DNA of 11,545 nt from a virus (taxonomy: Duplodnaviria; Heunggongvirae; Uroviricota; Caudoviricetes), in the IMG/VR virus record IMGVR_UViG_2713896785_000013. One strand, 5' to 3'. Shown here one piece after another: positions 1 through 5,486 of this stretch. The notes under the pieces are model-generated. The model ran no database searches. It was not told the origin of the DNA and saw only the letters and a program-made list of their open reading frames with translations. Position numbers and translations under genes: made by a program. Numbering within the stretch: position 1 is the stretch's first letter; every line of letters starts with the position of its first letter.

Positions 1-158
1 AACACTTTTGTGGCAAAGCATGGTGCCGGGTGCCTCCCGGTGAATTCAGTATCAGCACCTGAATCCGCGATTATCCCATATACCTGGTTGCTGATCGCCC
101 CTCCGCACAGGGGGATTCACCATGCAGAAGTGTTTTTAATAAACAGCAAACAAAAAAA

Positions 159-326
159 TCAAGCATTATGCAGGCTGTTTCTTTTTATCACCGGCCACAG
201 CAATACCANAATGCCGCAGACCAGCACCCCATCCGCCAGCACCGACATGATTCTGCTGGTGAAATCCACCATCACCACCAGAAACAGCAGGAGTGCAGCC
301 ACAGCCAGGCGCAGTTTTACCGTCAC
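159..326 (-). CDS. Small hydrophobic protein (about 55 aa, two predicted TM segments), translationally coupled to the upstream TerB-like gene
   Basis: GTG start overlaps the TGA of the upstream gene (GTGA). Translation VTVKLRLAVAALLLFLVVMVDFTSRIMSVLADGVLVCGIxVLLWPVIKRNSLHNA is hydrophobic. Ambiguous base at 209. Below the 60-aa ORF-track cutoff, found by manual translation. Confidence 0.3.
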   Translation of the reverse strand: MTVKLRLAVAALLLFLVVMVDFTSRIMSVLADGVLVCGIXVLLWPVIKRNSLHNA

Positions 327-755
327 AGGTGATTCTCCAGACGAAGACCCAGAACACCGGCAATCTCTTCCAGCACCTTGCGCTCTTCCGGCTCAATTTC
401 GCCGTCTGCCTCCGCAATGGCCACCGCCACATCCAGCACATCTTCCGCTTCACGCGTATCGTGTTTCACATCCTCGATCTCACGTAACGCCGCACGACGA
501 CCAGTTTTAAAGTTCGTATCCAGCTGACCGATAATGGTTGCGCTAATCGCATTAATTTCTGACGTAAACGCGGACAGCGCAGGCTGATTACGCAGTACCT
601 GTTCGATCTTCGCTTTCTAGGAAGCCTCACATTCACCATCTGCATAGGCCACCAGGTAGGCGGCGTTAATCACCACCTGTGCCAGATCGCGTTTTTCAAA
701 CTTTTTAATTTCCGTTGCCGCTCTGCGGGCTTTTTTTACCAAAAATACCAAACAT
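323..755 (-). pseudogene. TerB-family (tellurite-resistance TerB-like) protein gene, apparently disrupted by a frameshift and an in-frame amber codon
   Basis: ATG at 755 preceded by AAGGAA. Manual translation gives MFGIFGKK then, after a +1 frame slip in the T7 run at 731-737, ...AYADGECEAS*KAKIEQVL...AEADGEIEPEERKVLEEIAGVLGLRLENHL with repeated acidic ADGE motifs typical of TerB. In-frame TAG at 617-619, stop TGA at 323-325. Confidence 0.45.
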
Positions 756-889
756 CGTGACGTTCCTTTGGGTGGGTGAGCCAACGCCCGGGAGCGATCT
801 GCCCACAGAGAAAGTCACACTGACCACTCCGTAAGCTCCCCCCCCCGAAAGGCTCTGTGGTTGGTATGCGCCGGGCGTGGCGCAGATAC

Positions 890-913
890 AAAAAAGGCCC
901 GCAAAAGCGAGCC
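890..913 (-). terminator. Rho-independent terminator downstream of the tRNA cluster
   Basis: On the minus strand, GGCTCGC-TTTT-GCGGGCC hairpin (7 bp including one G-U pair) followed by a TTTTTT run. Confidence 0.5.
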
Positions 914-929
914 GGGAAAATAAGTGTAG

Positions 930-1003
930 CGCGTTGTACTGGAGTCGAACCAGTGACCGATTGCTTAGAAGGCAATTGCTCTGTCCTGCTGAGCTAACAA
1001 CGC
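930..1003 (-). tRNA. tRNA-Arg (anticodon UCU), phage-type rare-codon tRNA; CCA not encoded
   Basis: Manual cloverleaf: acceptor GCGTTGT/ACAACGC, D-arm GCTC...GAGC, anticodon stem ATTGC/GCAAT with loop CTTCTAA, T-arm ACTGG-TTCGACT-CCAGT. Confidence 0.8.
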
Positions 1004-1016
1004 AGAATACCGATAA

Positions 1017-1092
1017 TGGACCACCACCGGGGACTCGAACCTCGCACACTCAACTTAAAGGGTTGACGCTCTTTCCTGATGGCTAGTGGCGG
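1017..1092 (-). tRNA. tRNA-like element, probably degenerate (apparent anticodon UUU with C at position 33, weak D-stem)
   Basis: Acceptor stem CCGCCAC/GTGGTGG, anticodon stem TCAAC/GTTGA with loop CCTTTAA, T-loop TTCGAGT with one T-stem mismatch, 3' CCA present. D-stem forms only two pairs. Confidence 0.35.
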
Positions 1093-1093
1093 T

Positions 1094-1143
1094 TGGTGGC
1101 CCTTGCTGGATTTGAACCAGCGACCTGGCGATTATGAGTCGCT
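1094..1143 (-). tRNA. tRNA with CAU anticodon (Ile2/lysidine-type or Met, ileZ-like), 3' two-thirds only; 5' part lost in the assembly gap
   Basis: 3' end ...GGTCGCTGGTTCAAATCCAGCAAGGGCCACCA and anticodon loop CTCATAA closely resemble E. coli ileX/ileY as recalled. Sequence runs into the N stretch at 1144. Confidence 0.7.
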
Positions 1144-1193
1144 NNNNNNNNNNNNNNNNNNNNNNNNNNNNNNNNNNNNNNNNNNNNNNNNNN
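1144..1193. other. Assembly gap (50 N)
   Basis: Run of exactly 50 n; true length unknown. Confidence 0.95.
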
Positions 1194-1240: not shown

Positions 1241-1263
1241 AAAAAAACCCGCTTGTGGGCGGG
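1241..1263 (-). terminator. Candidate tR'-like intrinsic terminator just downstream of Q
   Basis: Hairpin CCCGC-CCACAA-GCGGG followed on the minus strand by TTTTTTT (A7 at 1241-1247 on plus). A weaker T-run also follows on the plus strand. Confidence 0.5.
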
Positions 1264-1311
1264 TTTTGTTTGCTTTTGCCATCACGTACAAAATCGGCAA
1301 AATATCAGATT

Positions 1312-1347
1312 TGCATGAAATATATGCCTTTCAATCTACTTTTGCAA
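1312..1347 (-). promoter_or_regulatory. Candidate late promoter (pR'-like) overlapping the 3' end of Q
   Basis: On the minus strand TTGCAA (1347-1342), 17-nt spacer, TATATT (1324-1319). Position immediately after Q and about 50-70 nt before the hairpin fits the lambdoid pR'/qut/tR' layout. Confidence 0.3.
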
Positions 1348-2020
1348 CACTTTGCTTTGAAAATGCCGCCTTTTGTTTTGAACGTGTTCTCATTACAAAT
1401 AATAAAGCCTCACTATCCAGTCGGTGAAAAATGTGTTTCATTGCAACCCAGTGACGAGTAAATGTTTTGGACCAGTTTTTAGTTGTCACTCCCGCCAGTA
1501 ATGCCAGCTCCTGATATTCATAACCTTCCCCACCAAAAAGTTCTGCTTTTACTGCCTGCGCCGCCAGCCAGATTAATTTTTTCAGGCGTTCCTGCGTTTT
1601 CCCAGCAATTTTTCTGGTACCGGATTGAGTATTAAATTCATTCCACGCCCACTGTGTTATCGCGATCTGATATTCCCAACAAATACTCCCGCTGTAACAC
1701 CACAACAACCAGGCTTTATGATGTTCTTCAAGAGACAGAACAGCCCGCCGCCACGATGATGTCGAAAACTCAACCGGACTGACCAGAGGAATTGACGTCA
1801 CCTTCGCCAGCGATTGCTTTCCCGGGATTGGTGGATTATCCCGCGTTATCATTTTTCCAGTCACTTCATCGCGGTACCGGATTTTTTTTCGCCTGTAACG
1901 CCCTGTATCGAACATGGCATTCTCCTGCCAGGCTTCAAGCTGACCTTTTGTTGCCCCACTCAAATCAGCGGTGGCGATAATGAGCTGCTCACGCACAAAC
2001 TGTAAATAGTGGTTATTCAT
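1331..2020 (-). CDS. Late antitermination protein Q (large Qin/QuuQ-type)
   Basis: About 229 aa from an ATG that overlaps the rusA stop (ATGA). Sits directly downstream of rusA and upstream of the tRNAs and promoter/terminator pair; size matches the roughly 250-aa Q class. Confidence 0.7.
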   Translation of the reverse strand: MNNHYLQFVREQLIIATADLSGATKGQLEAWQENAMFDTGRYRRKKIRYRDEVTGKMITRDNPPIPGKQSLAKVTSIPLVSPVEFSTSSWRRAVLSLEEHHKAWLLWCYSGSICWEYQIAITQWAWNEFNTQSGTRKIAGKTQERLKKLIWLAAQAVKAELFGGEGYEYQELALLAGVTTKNWSKTFTRHWVAMKHIFHRLDSEALLFVMRTRSKQKAAFSKQSVAKVD

Positions 2021-2382
2021 GCGCACTCCAGTTCTGTGATTTTTATCCCCAGCCGCCCACCAGGAACGAGCTGACCGCGCACAATATTGATTTCATCAAA
2101 CTGCTCGTCGTCTATGAGAAGTCCGGCATGCGTCAGCACATCCAGTGGTGCTTTCAGGATATTGTCCAGGTCACGACGGCGCTTATCCGGTGGCTCTGCA
2201 ATAATCTTTATCACCAGCCTTCCGGACAGGTTTAATTTCAGCCGCTGCTGGCGAACAATTAGCGCCACATCACGGCGATAACGCTTTCCGGCTTCCGAGA
2301 TGAAATACGTATTGCCATGACGTCGCCAGTAGGTATTCACCGTCGGCGGGTAAGGCAAAACAAATTCTATCCGTTCAGTCAT
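2017..2382 (-). CDS. rusA: Holliday junction resolvase RusA
   Basis: 121-aa product MTERIEFVLPYPPTVNTYWRR...PPDKRRRDLDNILKAPLDVLTHAGLLIDDEQ... carries the RusA catalytic Asp motif region and the expected size and position upstream of Q. Confidence 0.9.
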   Translation of the reverse strand: MTERIEFVLPYPPTVNTYWRRHGNTYFISEAGKRYRRDVALIVRQQRLKLNLSGRLVIKIIAEPPDKRRRDLDNILKAPLDVLTHAGLLIDDEQFDEINIVRGQLVPGGRLGIKITELECA

Positions 2383-2724
2383 TCATGCTTTCCACTTCAG
2401 GACACCCGAATTTCTCGCGTGCATTAAAAAACGAATCAGCAACAACAGCTGGCTGCCGTGTTTTTCTTCAAAATCTTTTACCCCGGCGTGCAGTTCGTTA
2501 TGACATTTACGGCACAGCGGAATAACAAACAAATCATCAGCCTTTGTTCCCATCCCTCCCAGTCCATGACCAATGATGTGATGCGGATCATCTGCCTGAT
2601 TACCGCACGTCATGCATTTCTGCGTTTTTACCCAGCGCGTGTATACAGGCATCTCTTCCCGTTGTGGTTTCTGGCGCTGGAGATACTGAGCCGGTGACTC
2701 CGGATCAACGGCAATGCTGACCAC
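2383..2724 (-). CDS. YbcO-like (DUF1364-type) zinc-binding nin-region protein, putative nuclease
   Basis: Cys/His pattern C-x2-C ... HH ... C-x2-CH in the product, placed immediately upstream of rusA as ybcO is in DLP12. Start is GTG at 2724 (SD AGGAAAAG) or an internal ATG at 2652. Confidence 0.55.
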   Translation of the reverse strand: MVSIAVDPESPAQYLQRQKPQREEMPVYTRWVKTQKCMTCGNQADDPHHIIGHGLGGMGTKADDLFVIPLCRKCHNELHAGVKDFEEKHGSQLLLLIRFLMHARNSGVLKWKA

Positions 2725-3439
2725 CGTCTTTTCCTGTGGCGGGTTTTGCTGGTGGGCGTGAGGCAGCGGCGCAAGATTTTTTTGTGCGCTGCTTCAGTAT
2801 GATGGTGGCGGTCTGCTCTCCCGGTACGATGTCGCTTTCACGGTACATTGAGCGGATTTTTTCCGCACGCAACCCCAGCGAACGACGTAATACCGCTTCC
2901 GGTTGCGCGTCCGCCACCTGATTGCGGACCGCCCACCAGGATAATTCAGCCAGAGATAATTCACGCTCCTGCGTACCGCTTATTGCGTGACCGATGACGT
3001 CAATCATCCATGCTGACAGGTTTTGATGAGCAAGTTGCTCGAGTGATTCGGATGTCTGGTCACGCAGCTGGTTGTCGCAGTGCCAGCACAACACCATTGC
3101 GCCGGTACCATAACGGTGAATAACGGTTTCACTGTGATGATAGTCACCATGAGGCCACTGGCAGGATTTGACATGACGCAACAGCCAGTCAGACAGTGCA
3201 CCAGCGCCACCAACAGCACGAATCACACGCTCATTGCTGAAAAACGGCAGTAATGATTTATCCTCCGCCAGCGGCTGGCGAACGGCAGGGACGATGCCGG
3301 ACGGCAGACCGCGCATGCTTTTCGGTTCCGGCTCCACAAGCACTCGAGGGTTATGGAATACCTGCATGGATTCACGGCCTGGTTTAAGGACCTCCAACCC
3401 AAGTTCCGGTACCGGAACAGGTCGAAGTAATACCCGCAC
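2705..3439 (-). CDS. DUF968-like (YdfU-like) phage protein
   Basis: Long ORF with a His/Cys-rich core (WPHGDYHH...LCWHCDNQL). GTG start at 3439 preceded by GGAGG, which overlaps the upstream stop; an internal ATG at 3367 is an alternative start. Confidence 0.5.
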   Translation of the reverse strand: MRVLLRPVPVPELGLEVLKPGRESMQVFHNPRVLVEPEPKSMRGLPSGIVPAVRQPLAEDKSLLPFFSNERVIRAVGGAGALSDWLLRHVKSCQWPHGDYHHSETVIHRYGTGAMVLCWHCDNQLRDQTSESLEQLAHQNLSAWMIDVIGHAISGTQERELSLAELSWWAVRNQVADAQPEAVLRRSLGLRAEKIRSMYRESDIVPGEQTATIILKQRTKKSCAAASRPPAKPATGKDGGQHCR

Positions 3440-4266: not shown

Positions 4267-4392
4267 TTACTCCTCAGGTTCGTAAGCTGTGAAGACNNNN
4301 NNNNNNNNNNNNNNNNNNNNNNNNNNNNNNNNNNNNNNNNNNNNNNAACAGATGACGATCAGGGCGATTAACATCGCCTTTTGCTGCTTCAT
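4267..4392 (-). CDS. hokD: Hok/Gef-family membrane toxin (HokD/RelF-like), interrupted by an assembly gap
   Basis: N-terminus MKQQKAMLIALIVIC and C-terminus VFTAYEPEE match recalled HokD. SD AAGGAG upstream of the ATG at 4392. The middle of the gene is the 50-N gap, so length and frame across it are unreliable. An in-frame upstream ATG at 4449 is in the mok position. Confidence 0.8.
   Translation of the reverse strand: MKQQKAMLIALIVICXXXXXXXXXXXXXXXXXVFTAYEPEE
4297..4346. other. Assembly gap (50 N) inside hok
   Basis: Run of exactly 50 n. Confidence 0.95.
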
Positions 4393-4584
4393 AGCCTGCT
4401 TCTCCTTGACCTTTCGGTCCGTAAGAGGCAATCTATATGTGACGAGCATATAGGGGCCTCACTTCGATTTATAGTCGGGTGGGGCTTTTATCTATCTGCC
4501 GTTGGTGTTCATGCCCGAGGCAGATAGCCTCAAGCACCCGCAGCAATCCTACTTAACTCTGCCGTTACAGCAAACCGTTTTCGC

Positions 4585-4727: not shown

Positions 4728-5486
4728 TCAAGTGCCTTTCCTGGTCCAGCCATATTTTTTGAATGCAGGCGCCGCTTCATCGGTTTGTAGCCATTCTGCA
4801 AATCGACGGGTTTCATCATTTGCATCCTGACGTACTGTAATGTTCATATCACGCCATATCACGTAGTCTGGCGCTATTTCCACGACATCACCAATTTCTG
4901 GATTACTGGCTGCCCAGTCAGCCCAGGTTATCCAGACATCTGCTCCAGGCTGATTCTCAAGAGCCTTACGTGCAGTTCCGCTATTGGGCGCATATAAAAT
5001 AATATTTTTTCGGATTGCGGCGACAGTTTCTATATTCCCTTTACGTCCGGCAATATCTTCCCAGACGCCAGTGCCTGATGTATTACTGGTACCACCACCA
5101 TCATTAACAATTACGCCAATCCCAGGTCTGGTCAGGTCGTCAATACTCCGGATATTTTTAGGATTACCTTTCTTTACCAGTAAAATACTTTTTCGCAGAT
5201 AAAGAGGCTGAATATCTTTTTCACTGAAGCTGTCTTTATGGTCCCGAATGATAGCCAGAGCAGATTGTTCTGATGCGCCAAACAAGATATCTGCATTTTT
5301 TTTGGCATCTTCATTCCATTTGTTCTGTGGGCCGTAATGAACGTTCACTATAATACCTGTTTTTTCGGCATAAAGTTTGGCTGCATCAAGCAAGGCTGTA
5401 TGCGGGCCACCAGGACCATACAGATTGATATCAGCATAAGCAGCAGAAGACAGGAATATTAAAAAACCTGCCATTATGTTCCTCAT
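4728..5486 (-). CDS. Secreted periplasmic substrate-binding protein, ModA-like (molybdate/tungstate-type PBP fold), orphan
   Basis: Strong SD AAGGAG and signal peptide MRNIMAGFLIFLSSAAYA. GIIVNVHYGPQ...ADILFGASEQS and the C-terminal FKKYGWTRK resemble recalled ModA segments. Gene and upstream region are visibly AT-rich; no permease or ATPase gene nearby. Confidence 0.65.
   Translation of the reverse strand: MRNIMAGFLIFLSSAAYADINLYGPGGPHTALLDAAKLYAEKTGIIVNVHYGPQNKWNEDAKKNADILFGASEQSALAIIRDHKDSFSEKDIQPLYLRKSILLVKKGNPKNIRSIDDLTRPGIGVIVNDGGGTSNTSGTGVWEDIAGRKGNIETVAAIRKNIILYAPNSGTARKALENQPGADVWITWADWAASNPEIGDVVEIAPDYVIWRDMNITVRQDANDETRRFAEWLQTDEAAPAFKKYGWTRKGT

Follow-up and report, generated by a model that had tools for sequence, protein, structure and literature searches.

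The window analysed here is the whole 11,545-nt stretch of the IMG/VR virus record IMGVR_UViG_2713896785_000013, and its subject is a pair of genes, tciA and tciB, which a preliminary description made from the letters alone had picked out as a TerB-family gene coupled to a small membrane protein. The locus is an already-catalogued phage pair that lies in the late region of an E. coli lambdoid prophage undergoing decay, and the genes of the tciA region all lie on the minus strand. Judged from comparison of its sequence with relatives, the tciA of the window is a genuine pseudogene, whose lesions are real and widely inherited alleles. Overall, we think it very likely that tciA-tciB is an accessory pair, that tciA has here been pseudogenised by those inherited alleles, and that the pair, when intact, is a module of lytic growth. 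The features on which the argument turns are these:

323..754, minus strand: tciA-like TerB-family pseudogene (ancestral ATG at 754..752, TGA stop at 325..323)
159..326, minus strand: tciB-like DUF3927 gene of 55 aa with a GTG start (Pfam and PHROG matches)
323..326, minus strand: GTGA overlap of the tciA TGA stop (325..323) and the tciB GTG start (326..324), read from the sequence
763..766, minus strand: Shine-Dalgarno-like AGGA, 8 nt 5' of the ATG and 12 nt 5' of the TTG (read from the sequence; putative function)
749..751, minus strand: TTG in the TerB frame, the start called in the A7 allele (MVFLVKKARR...) by the Prokaryotic Genome Annotation Pipeline (PGAP); the database proteins P0009, P0015 and P0058 begin in this way
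731..737, minus strand: A7 run on the coding strand (T7 on the plus strand), against A6 in intact alleles (alignment with phage JLK-2012 and with loci L006-L008)
617..619, minus strand: amber TAG (CTA on the plus strand) in place of the invariant Glu46 codon GAG, within the first D-G-x5-E motif (alignment)

A TerB-family gene and its DUF3927 partner

With both lesions repaired, the reconstructed TciA has 143 aa. Pfam assigns it to TerB (PF05099) with 57.6 bits and E 1.9e-15 (cut-off 24.4 bits); it also matches PHROG 632, 'tellurite resistance' (E 1.4e-68), and its residues 15-137, near full length, align with residues 21-144 of Klebsiella TerB (PDB 2JXU, E 4.2e-7), which bears out the family assignment made in the preliminary description. 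A structure model was built on P0001, an intact allele 98% identical to the reconstructed protein; this AlphaFold2 model (pLDDT 85) has six helices. Its top Foldseek match in the PDB is 2h5n, which we take to have a TerB-like fold (probability 1.0 and TM 0.52-0.56, with an E value of only 0.013); this is the sole confident match, and 2JXU is absent from the top Foldseek PDB list for the model. The motif D-G-x5-E occurs twice in TciA, as D39-G40-E46 and D117-G118-E124, and is invariant or nearly so in homologues; the E46 column itself is invariant in alignments down to 51% identity. The product of the window does not carry both motifs intact, codon 46 being TAG. As read from its codons, the window gene is thus a member of the TerB family by descent, without a complete TerB protein being encoded. 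In identical complete genomes the gene is labelled by PGAP as 'tellurite resistance TerB family protein, pseudogene, internal stop', followed by 'DUF3927 family protein', and the 'internal stop' flag appears in L001, L002 and L004; public annotation already covers the pair, its location and the internal stop.

The 55-aa TciB matches Pfam DUF3927 (PF13064) at 60 bits against a cut-off of 25 and PHROG 1470, 'TciB-like' (E 1.3e-29). Two hydrophobic segments can be read from the sequence of the window TciB, and the Kyte-Doolittle means of homologous partner open reading frames (ORFs) are mostly 0.7-1.6; a single 'n' at 209, within tciB, is an A (Met codon) in relatives. The overlap with a 55-aa, two-transmembrane protein through a GTGA junction, as first described, is therefore where it was said to be (326..159 for tciB), and the junction recurs in 84 of the 85 fetched E. 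coli-type loci, 76 of these with a TciB of 54-55 aa. A GGAG stands at 338..335, 8 nt 5' of the tciB GTG, and from this start of its own the TciB of the window may still be made. In L004 (NZ_CP027544) a C-to-A change at the equivalent of window position 324 has turned GTGA into GTTA, so that tciA has lost its stop and tciB its GTG, and PGAP there calls a DUF3927 protein of 47 aa.

Beyond E. coli, the pairing is conserved across Gammaproteobacteria. A hydrophobic ORF of 49-59 aa follows tciA at -8 to +2 nt in 32 of 37 species-representative genome loci, and most of these partners share a conserved D-F/S-x-S ... S ... D motif. The species-representative genomes with the pair include Pantoea, Pseudescherichia, Franconibacter, Buttiauxella, Serratia, Pectobacterium, Aeromonadaceae, Oceanisphaera, Pseudomonas and Xanthomonas, and Pfam DUF3927 was confirmed for the partner proteins of Pseudomonas, Serratia and Aeromonadaceae. 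In three loci (L099, L103 and L115; Pseudomonas and Paracoccus) another small membrane-anchored protein, of 67-72 aa, takes the place of the DUF3927 protein; this alternative partner has the motif CSxYG...VGC and no Pfam match. Relatives of TciA are encoded in 131 sequenced-phage records, and TciB stands beside TciA in P1, the N4-like Pollock, FSL SP-058, Shigella phage B2 and Fostie, so that the pair is found in temperate as well as N4-like phages; Pollock has been described as presumably lytic (PMC4319500). Intact homologues of the pair, for which the preliminary description had proposed a search, are thus at hand, in phage JLK-2012 and across the species-level loci. Among intact tciA alleles, pairwise dN/dS is 0.02-0.10 at dS values of 0.2 to 2.4, and this low ratio indicates that intact tciA is functional and under strong purifying selection.

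The two lesions of tciA and their ancestry

The T7 run at 731-737 and the in-frame TAG at 617-619 were both reported from the letters of the window, and both are present there in the minus-strand gene. The A7 run is a one-base insertion relative to A6, by which the ATG at 754..752 is thrown out of the TerB frame (+1 after the A run); with AGGA 8 nt before it, this ATG now opens a 16-codon ORF, MFGIFGKKSPQSGNGN. The supposed +1 slip is accordingly real as a displacement relative to the ATG. It does not appear as a frameshift in public annotation, since the TerB frame has a TTG at 751..749, because of which PGAP makes no frameshift call in identical genomes. The TerB frame would be left with this TTG start alone, 12 nt from the AGGA, and its translation is probably reduced. 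The amber codon falls in the loop after helix 1 of the AlphaFold2 model, keeping one of the six predicted helices, and the amber allele can yield a peptide of 44-45 residues at most. The fragment that follows the TAG is represented at NCBI by protein cluster P0091, with 462 members.

Both lesions are derived. This follows from the intact A6 and GAG alleles of L003 and of the IMG/VR loci L006-L008, which have the window's own 5' (N-terminal-region) sequence, from the homologues of other genera (Klebsiella, Salmonella, Pantoea, Serratia and jumbo Erwinia phages), which mostly start with MFG or a near variant and have Glu at position 46, and from the invariance of E46. The suggestion that the module is decaying is thereby upheld for tciA. 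The two lesions are also separable, and have been reshuffled by recombination, because A7 with E46 is common in the protein database (P0009, P0015, and P0058 with its 847 members) and the amber codon is present on an in-frame 5' haplotype too (L079). Other copies carry unrelated 5' lesions, among them deletion of a G in ATGTTTGG (L055, L058 and L068) and the frame-shifted N-termini of P0013, P0031 and P0041, and in another copy (P0007) TciA and TciB are fused. Trp46 (TGG) is found on the A7 background in two database proteins, P0010 and P0012; a single step from TAG gives this codon, by which the frame would be opened again.

The frequency of the codon 46 alleles was taken from an allele-specific megablast, its 46-nt queries so designed that every 28-base seed spans codon 46, against 5426 complete E. 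coli genomes:

TAG: 1005 places in 577 genomes, up to 5 per genome
tcc-GAG: 164 places in 159 genomes
tca-GAG: 165 places in 148 genomes
gcatcc-GAG: 1374 places in 578 genomes
TGG: 0 places in 0 genomes

The amber allele thus makes up about 37% of at least 2708 counted tciA copies, some genomes are in both the amber and the GAG lists, and the Trp46 'revertant' is absent from all 5426 genomes. Around the A run, the exact 91-nt haplotype was found with A7 in 549 records and with A6 in 3. Clonal descent together with recombination would account for up to five amber copies in a genome beside intact copies. The same combination of A7 and TAG stands in the complete genomes NZ_AP027159, NZ_CP027546 and NZ_CP027544.

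Three other explanations of the broken frame can be weighed against inheritance as a pseudogene. The one that survives best, though we consider it improbable, is that the split locus is still used: that tciB alone, or a C-terminal TerB fragment of 48 aa from an internal GTG (469..467), is selected, and that loss of TciA is adaptive, for example through a lower cost to the lysogen. The intact tciB with its own GGAG would suit such a use, and with about one third of the counted copies amber, and with several independent 5' lesions besides, the recurrent loss could reflect counter-selection; PHROG 3920, a family of 48 aa, moreover matches TciA residues 96-143 exactly. At the same time, the tciB GTG is itself mutated in the sibling L004, the GAGGA before the internal GTG is just 1 nt away from it, a poor spacing, and PHROG 3920 is most simply a by-product of ORF calling on broken tciA genes. 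Intact copies, too, are present in genomes that have amber ones, and clonal oversampling accounts for the high counts without selection.

Less probable still is programmed recoding, in which full-length TciA would be made at a regulated low level through +1 slippage, ribosomal or transcriptional, along the A7 run and through read-through of the amber codon. A run of seven A residues is prone to slippage, the allele is stable and frequent, the frame 3' of the TAG is open, and the W46 variants P0010 and P0012 indicate that the TAG can mutate back to sense. Nonetheless, uninterrupted A6/GAG alleles are common, and those of L006-L008 carry the window's 5' sequence; the homologues from other genera that were compared show no such displacement of the frame and no stop codon at position 46; the different, unrelated 5' frameshifts in other copies look like random decay; and the TGG allele is missing from the complete genomes searched. 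Amber suppression by a neighbouring phage tRNA was considered and rejected, the anticodons of the adjacent cluster being CAT, TTT (in a degenerate tRNA) and TCT, and no tRNA with a CTA anticodon was found in that cluster or in the rest of the window. It is hardly credible that, as the preliminary description had allowed, both lesions arose in the sequencing or assembly of a low-quality record and the true gene is intact: the record is indeed of draft quality, as the 'n' at 209 and the 50 N at 1144-1193 show, and homopolymers are error-prone, but identical A7 and TAG alleles stand in many independently sequenced complete genomes, including the 99.9% identical relative, where PGAP marks the internal stop, and the 462 post-TAG fragment sequences at NCBI tell the same way. 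The refutation foreseen in the preliminary description, a corrected sequence with a single intact ORF, falls away on the same ground.

Pseudogenisation by inherited alleles is thus the reading we prefer. The stop and the shifted start of this tciA allele, being both real and common, call for annotation as a pseudogene and are not to be 'corrected'.

The late-region setting

In minus-strand order, the locus runs from Q through a pR'-like promoter, a tR'-like hairpin, the tRNAs, a terminator-like hairpin, a G9 tract and the AGGA to tciA, tciB and an STnc100 match. The features that surround the pair are as follows:

1331..2026, minus strand: late antiterminator Q (Pfam PF06323, E 1e-90)
1319..1347, minus strand: pR'-like sigma-70 promoter TTGCAA-17-TATATT at the end of Q (promoter scan; putative role, from position)
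1244..1267, minus strand: tR'-like hairpin (called on the plus strand by the scan; the minus-strand reading with a T run is from the sequence, and the tR' role is putative)
1093..1193, minus strand: 3' part of a tRNA with anticodon CAT (alignment with L001; tRNA-Ile by PGAP in L001 and L004)
1017..1092, minus strand: degenerate tRNA, an argN tRNA derivative (ARAGORN Lys(TTT), weak D and T arms)
929..1003, minus strand: argO-like tRNA-Arg, anticodon TCT (ARAGORN; Rfam tRNA 68 bits)
896..913, minus strand: intrinsic-terminator-like hairpin and T run in the interval between tRNA-Arg and tciA (terminator scan)
838-846, minus (coding) strand: homopolymer in the tciA leader, C9 on the plus strand and G9 on the coding strand (sequence)
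1..154, minus strand: match to the STnc100 small RNA family, clipped by the window end (Rfam RF02076, 100.4 bits against a gathering score of 47)

The placement of the pair after Q and tRNAs, which the preliminary description had proposed, holds: the Q match is strong, and tRNA-Arg(TCT), a degenerate tRNA and part of a CAT-anticodon tRNA lie upstream of tciA. A 50-N run at 1144-1193 conceals the 5' half of the CAT-anticodon tRNA. The degenerate tRNA at 1017..1092 scores under the Rfam tRNA threshold and has no PGAP annotation; relatives have a tRNA-Arg(TCG) at its position, and many loci have no detectable tRNA there. Late expression, also proposed from the letters, is probable in the form of Q-antiterminated transcription, there being a terminator upstream and, by a simple consensus scan of the minus strand from 895 to 755, no promoter of tciA's own, which is weak evidence. 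The G tract of the tciA leader is G5 in 63 fetched relatives and 6 to 11 in others, and is thus expanded and length-variable in this lineage. The STnc100 match begins 5 nt past the tciB stop; such matches are reported to be frequent near the prophage small RNAs PasA, PasC and PasD (2026 preprint on Pas sRNAs, 10.64898/2026.05.13.724894).

The slot itself is ordinary, contrary to the first impression that lysis or toxin genes would be expected in it. Its order is Q, pR'/tR', tRNAs of the ileZ/argN/argO type, cargo, sialate esterase and lysis genes, and tciA comes after a same-strand tRNA cluster in 60 of 80 IMG/VR loci, a sample of close relatives chosen by TciA similarity, as well as in the three complete genomes L001, L002 and L004 and in phage JLK-2012. 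In some loci (L016, L017, L019, L021-L027 and others) the tRNA cluster lies about 767 nt 5' of tciA instead of the usual distance of about 170 nt, which points to some 600 bp of inserted DNA. The idea that tciAB is always linked to tRNAs was considered and rejected: the link is true for E. coli lambdoid prophages and P1, and fails in Pseudomonas, Pectobacterium, Serratia and other loci.

The closest match to the whole window is NZ_CP027544 (L004), 99.9% identical, where the prophage adjoins ompW. Genes for a DUF968 protein, a DnaT-like protein, a fimbrial protein and the large terminase are pseudogenes in this sibling prophage. Together with the split DUF968 gene of the window and the degraded middle tRNA, they make up a prophage context that fits decay. 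In the window the DUF968 gene is split into 2705..3439 and 2383..2724 (minus strand), matching the 'frameshifted' DUF968 pseudogene of NZ_CP027544. Further from the pair, an Rfam sok antitoxin RNA lies at 4390-4539 (minus strand, 103.9 bits), the neighbouring gene being annotated in the sibling locus as HokD, a type I toxin, and a 252-aa ORF at 4728-5486 (minus strand) corresponds to paa (AcfC family adhesin Paa) of the sibling locus, a virulence-associated cargo in the early region of the ompW-integrated prophage, beside the fimbrial pseudogene. A 166-aa ORF at 10..510 on the plus strand was also considered as a gene; it has no Pfam match, is antisense to two conserved genes, and was set aside as spurious.

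Proposed role and comparison with known systems

A general model for the pair can be proposed from these observations. TciA would be a stand-alone cytoplasmic protein of the TerB fold and TciB a two-helix DUF3927 membrane protein, and in the prophage by ompW both would be read on a late transcript in the order pR', tR', tRNAs, terminator, tciA, tciB, STnc100, sialate esterase and lysis genes. Where tciA and tciB are intact, the two would be translated together, with TciB tethering TciA to the inner membrane or acting there as its partner, and the acidic D-G-x5-E sites of the TerB protein may sense or bind a cation or some other membrane-proximal signal. The module would act in lytic growth, for example in envelope protection of the infected cell or in the exclusion of phages or colicins, rather than as a lysogenic-conversion function; the case for a lytic-cycle role draws on the N4-like phages, on the C1-repressed ban operon of P1 and on a position behind two terminators without a promoter of its own having been found. 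In the lineage of the window, the change from A6 to A7 has displaced the ancestral ATG and left a weak in-frame TTG, and the change from GAG to TAG has removed Glu46 and truncated TciA after helix 1, with tciB left intact behind its GGAG-GTG. These lesions would then have spread among E. coli prophages, those in the rows listed being largely of Shiga-toxin-producing strains, by clonal descent and by recombination between prophages. The module could decay freely once a prophage had ceased to finish the lytic cycle, or where further copies in the genome made it redundant.

Several points weigh against this account. Both the membrane tethering and the lytic-cycle role are steps that we infer, and the names TciA and TciB come from homology alone (PMC4319500, PMC9603915). 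In P1, the tci genes were non-essential in a CRISPR interference screen (PMC10695390). The amber allele is very common and the frame 3' of it is open, which could point to recent spread or to residual use. The allele counts are inflated by heavy clonal sampling of O157:H7 and other Shiga-toxin-producing strains and take in only four sequence contexts of codon 46, and the consensus promoter search was a simple one, which a weak or non-sigma-70 promoter could escape.

A role in phage exclusion, colicin exclusion or protection of the cell is nonetheless plausible. We would go further only tentatively, to a picture that we regard as possible but rather doubtful, in which TciA-TciB is an ancient, translationally coupled lytic module of the inner membrane, serving superinfection or colicin exclusion or the sensing of envelope integrity, and in which its repeated, independent inactivation in E. 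coli prophages, largely of Shiga-toxin-producing strains, marks either prophages that are past lytic use or selection against the module in lysogens. The window itself adds nothing new biologically, holding an ordinary, known module with a pseudogenised tciA. The wider interest lies in the family, which is widespread, tightly coupled, under purifying selection and often broken in E. coli prophages, and which is named by homology.

Among known systems, Shiga-toxin (Stx) phages offer a parallel in position. In these phages stx occupies the slot after Q and the tRNAs, and the cargo of the window has the same place between tRNAs and the sialate esterase and lysis genes; unlike theirs, it is tciA-tciB and includes no toxin.

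The TerB of the terZABCDE system (Klebsiella, 2JXU) is like TciA in its Pfam family, in an alignment of nearly the whole length, in a predicted all-helical structure and in the duplicated acidic D-G-x5-E motif. The phage protein differs in having as its partner a 55-aa DUF3927 protein and not TerC, and no terC, terD, terE or terZ was found in the window or in the annotated 23.6-kb sibling locus.

The anti-phage systems Bunzi, Shango and Dionysus likewise set a TerB domain alongside a membrane component; TerB proteins have been reported to be membrane-associated, and membrane surveillance has been proposed for these systems (bioRxiv 10.1101/2022.05.11.491447; 10.1101/2025.09.30.679545). Their helicase, pore-forming and MAEBL partners are absent here, in contrast, and the tci pair is borne by phages, N4-like phages included. 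Membership in a known defence system was also considered and rejected, PADLOC models giving no significant match: only PDC-S48 for TciA (E 0.0087, 13 bits) and none for TciB.

The nearest framework for the pair is that of P1, since the names tciA and tciB in phage records, those of many lambdoid phages included, follow the P1 tciABC genes. P1 tciA-tciB(-tciC) likewise has a TerB-family protein of about 142 aa and then a DUF3927 protein of about 54 aa, tightly spaced on the same strand; by tblastn, the window TciA is 41-51% identical, depending on the P1 record, and TciB is 55% identical over 31 residues. In P1 as in the window, tRNAs flank the pair, the P1 order being tRNA-Asn, tRNA-Thr, tciA, tciB, tciC and tRNA-Ile. 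The two differ in that tciABC belongs to the C1-repressed ban operon and the window pair to a probably Q-dependent late transcript, in that the window has no tciC-like third ORF (no small ORF follows tciB, and the STnc100 match stands there instead), and in that the window tciA is broken. Phage JLK-2012, finally, has genes named tciA and tciB, both intact, in the very slot occupied by the window pair, after Q and three tRNAs.

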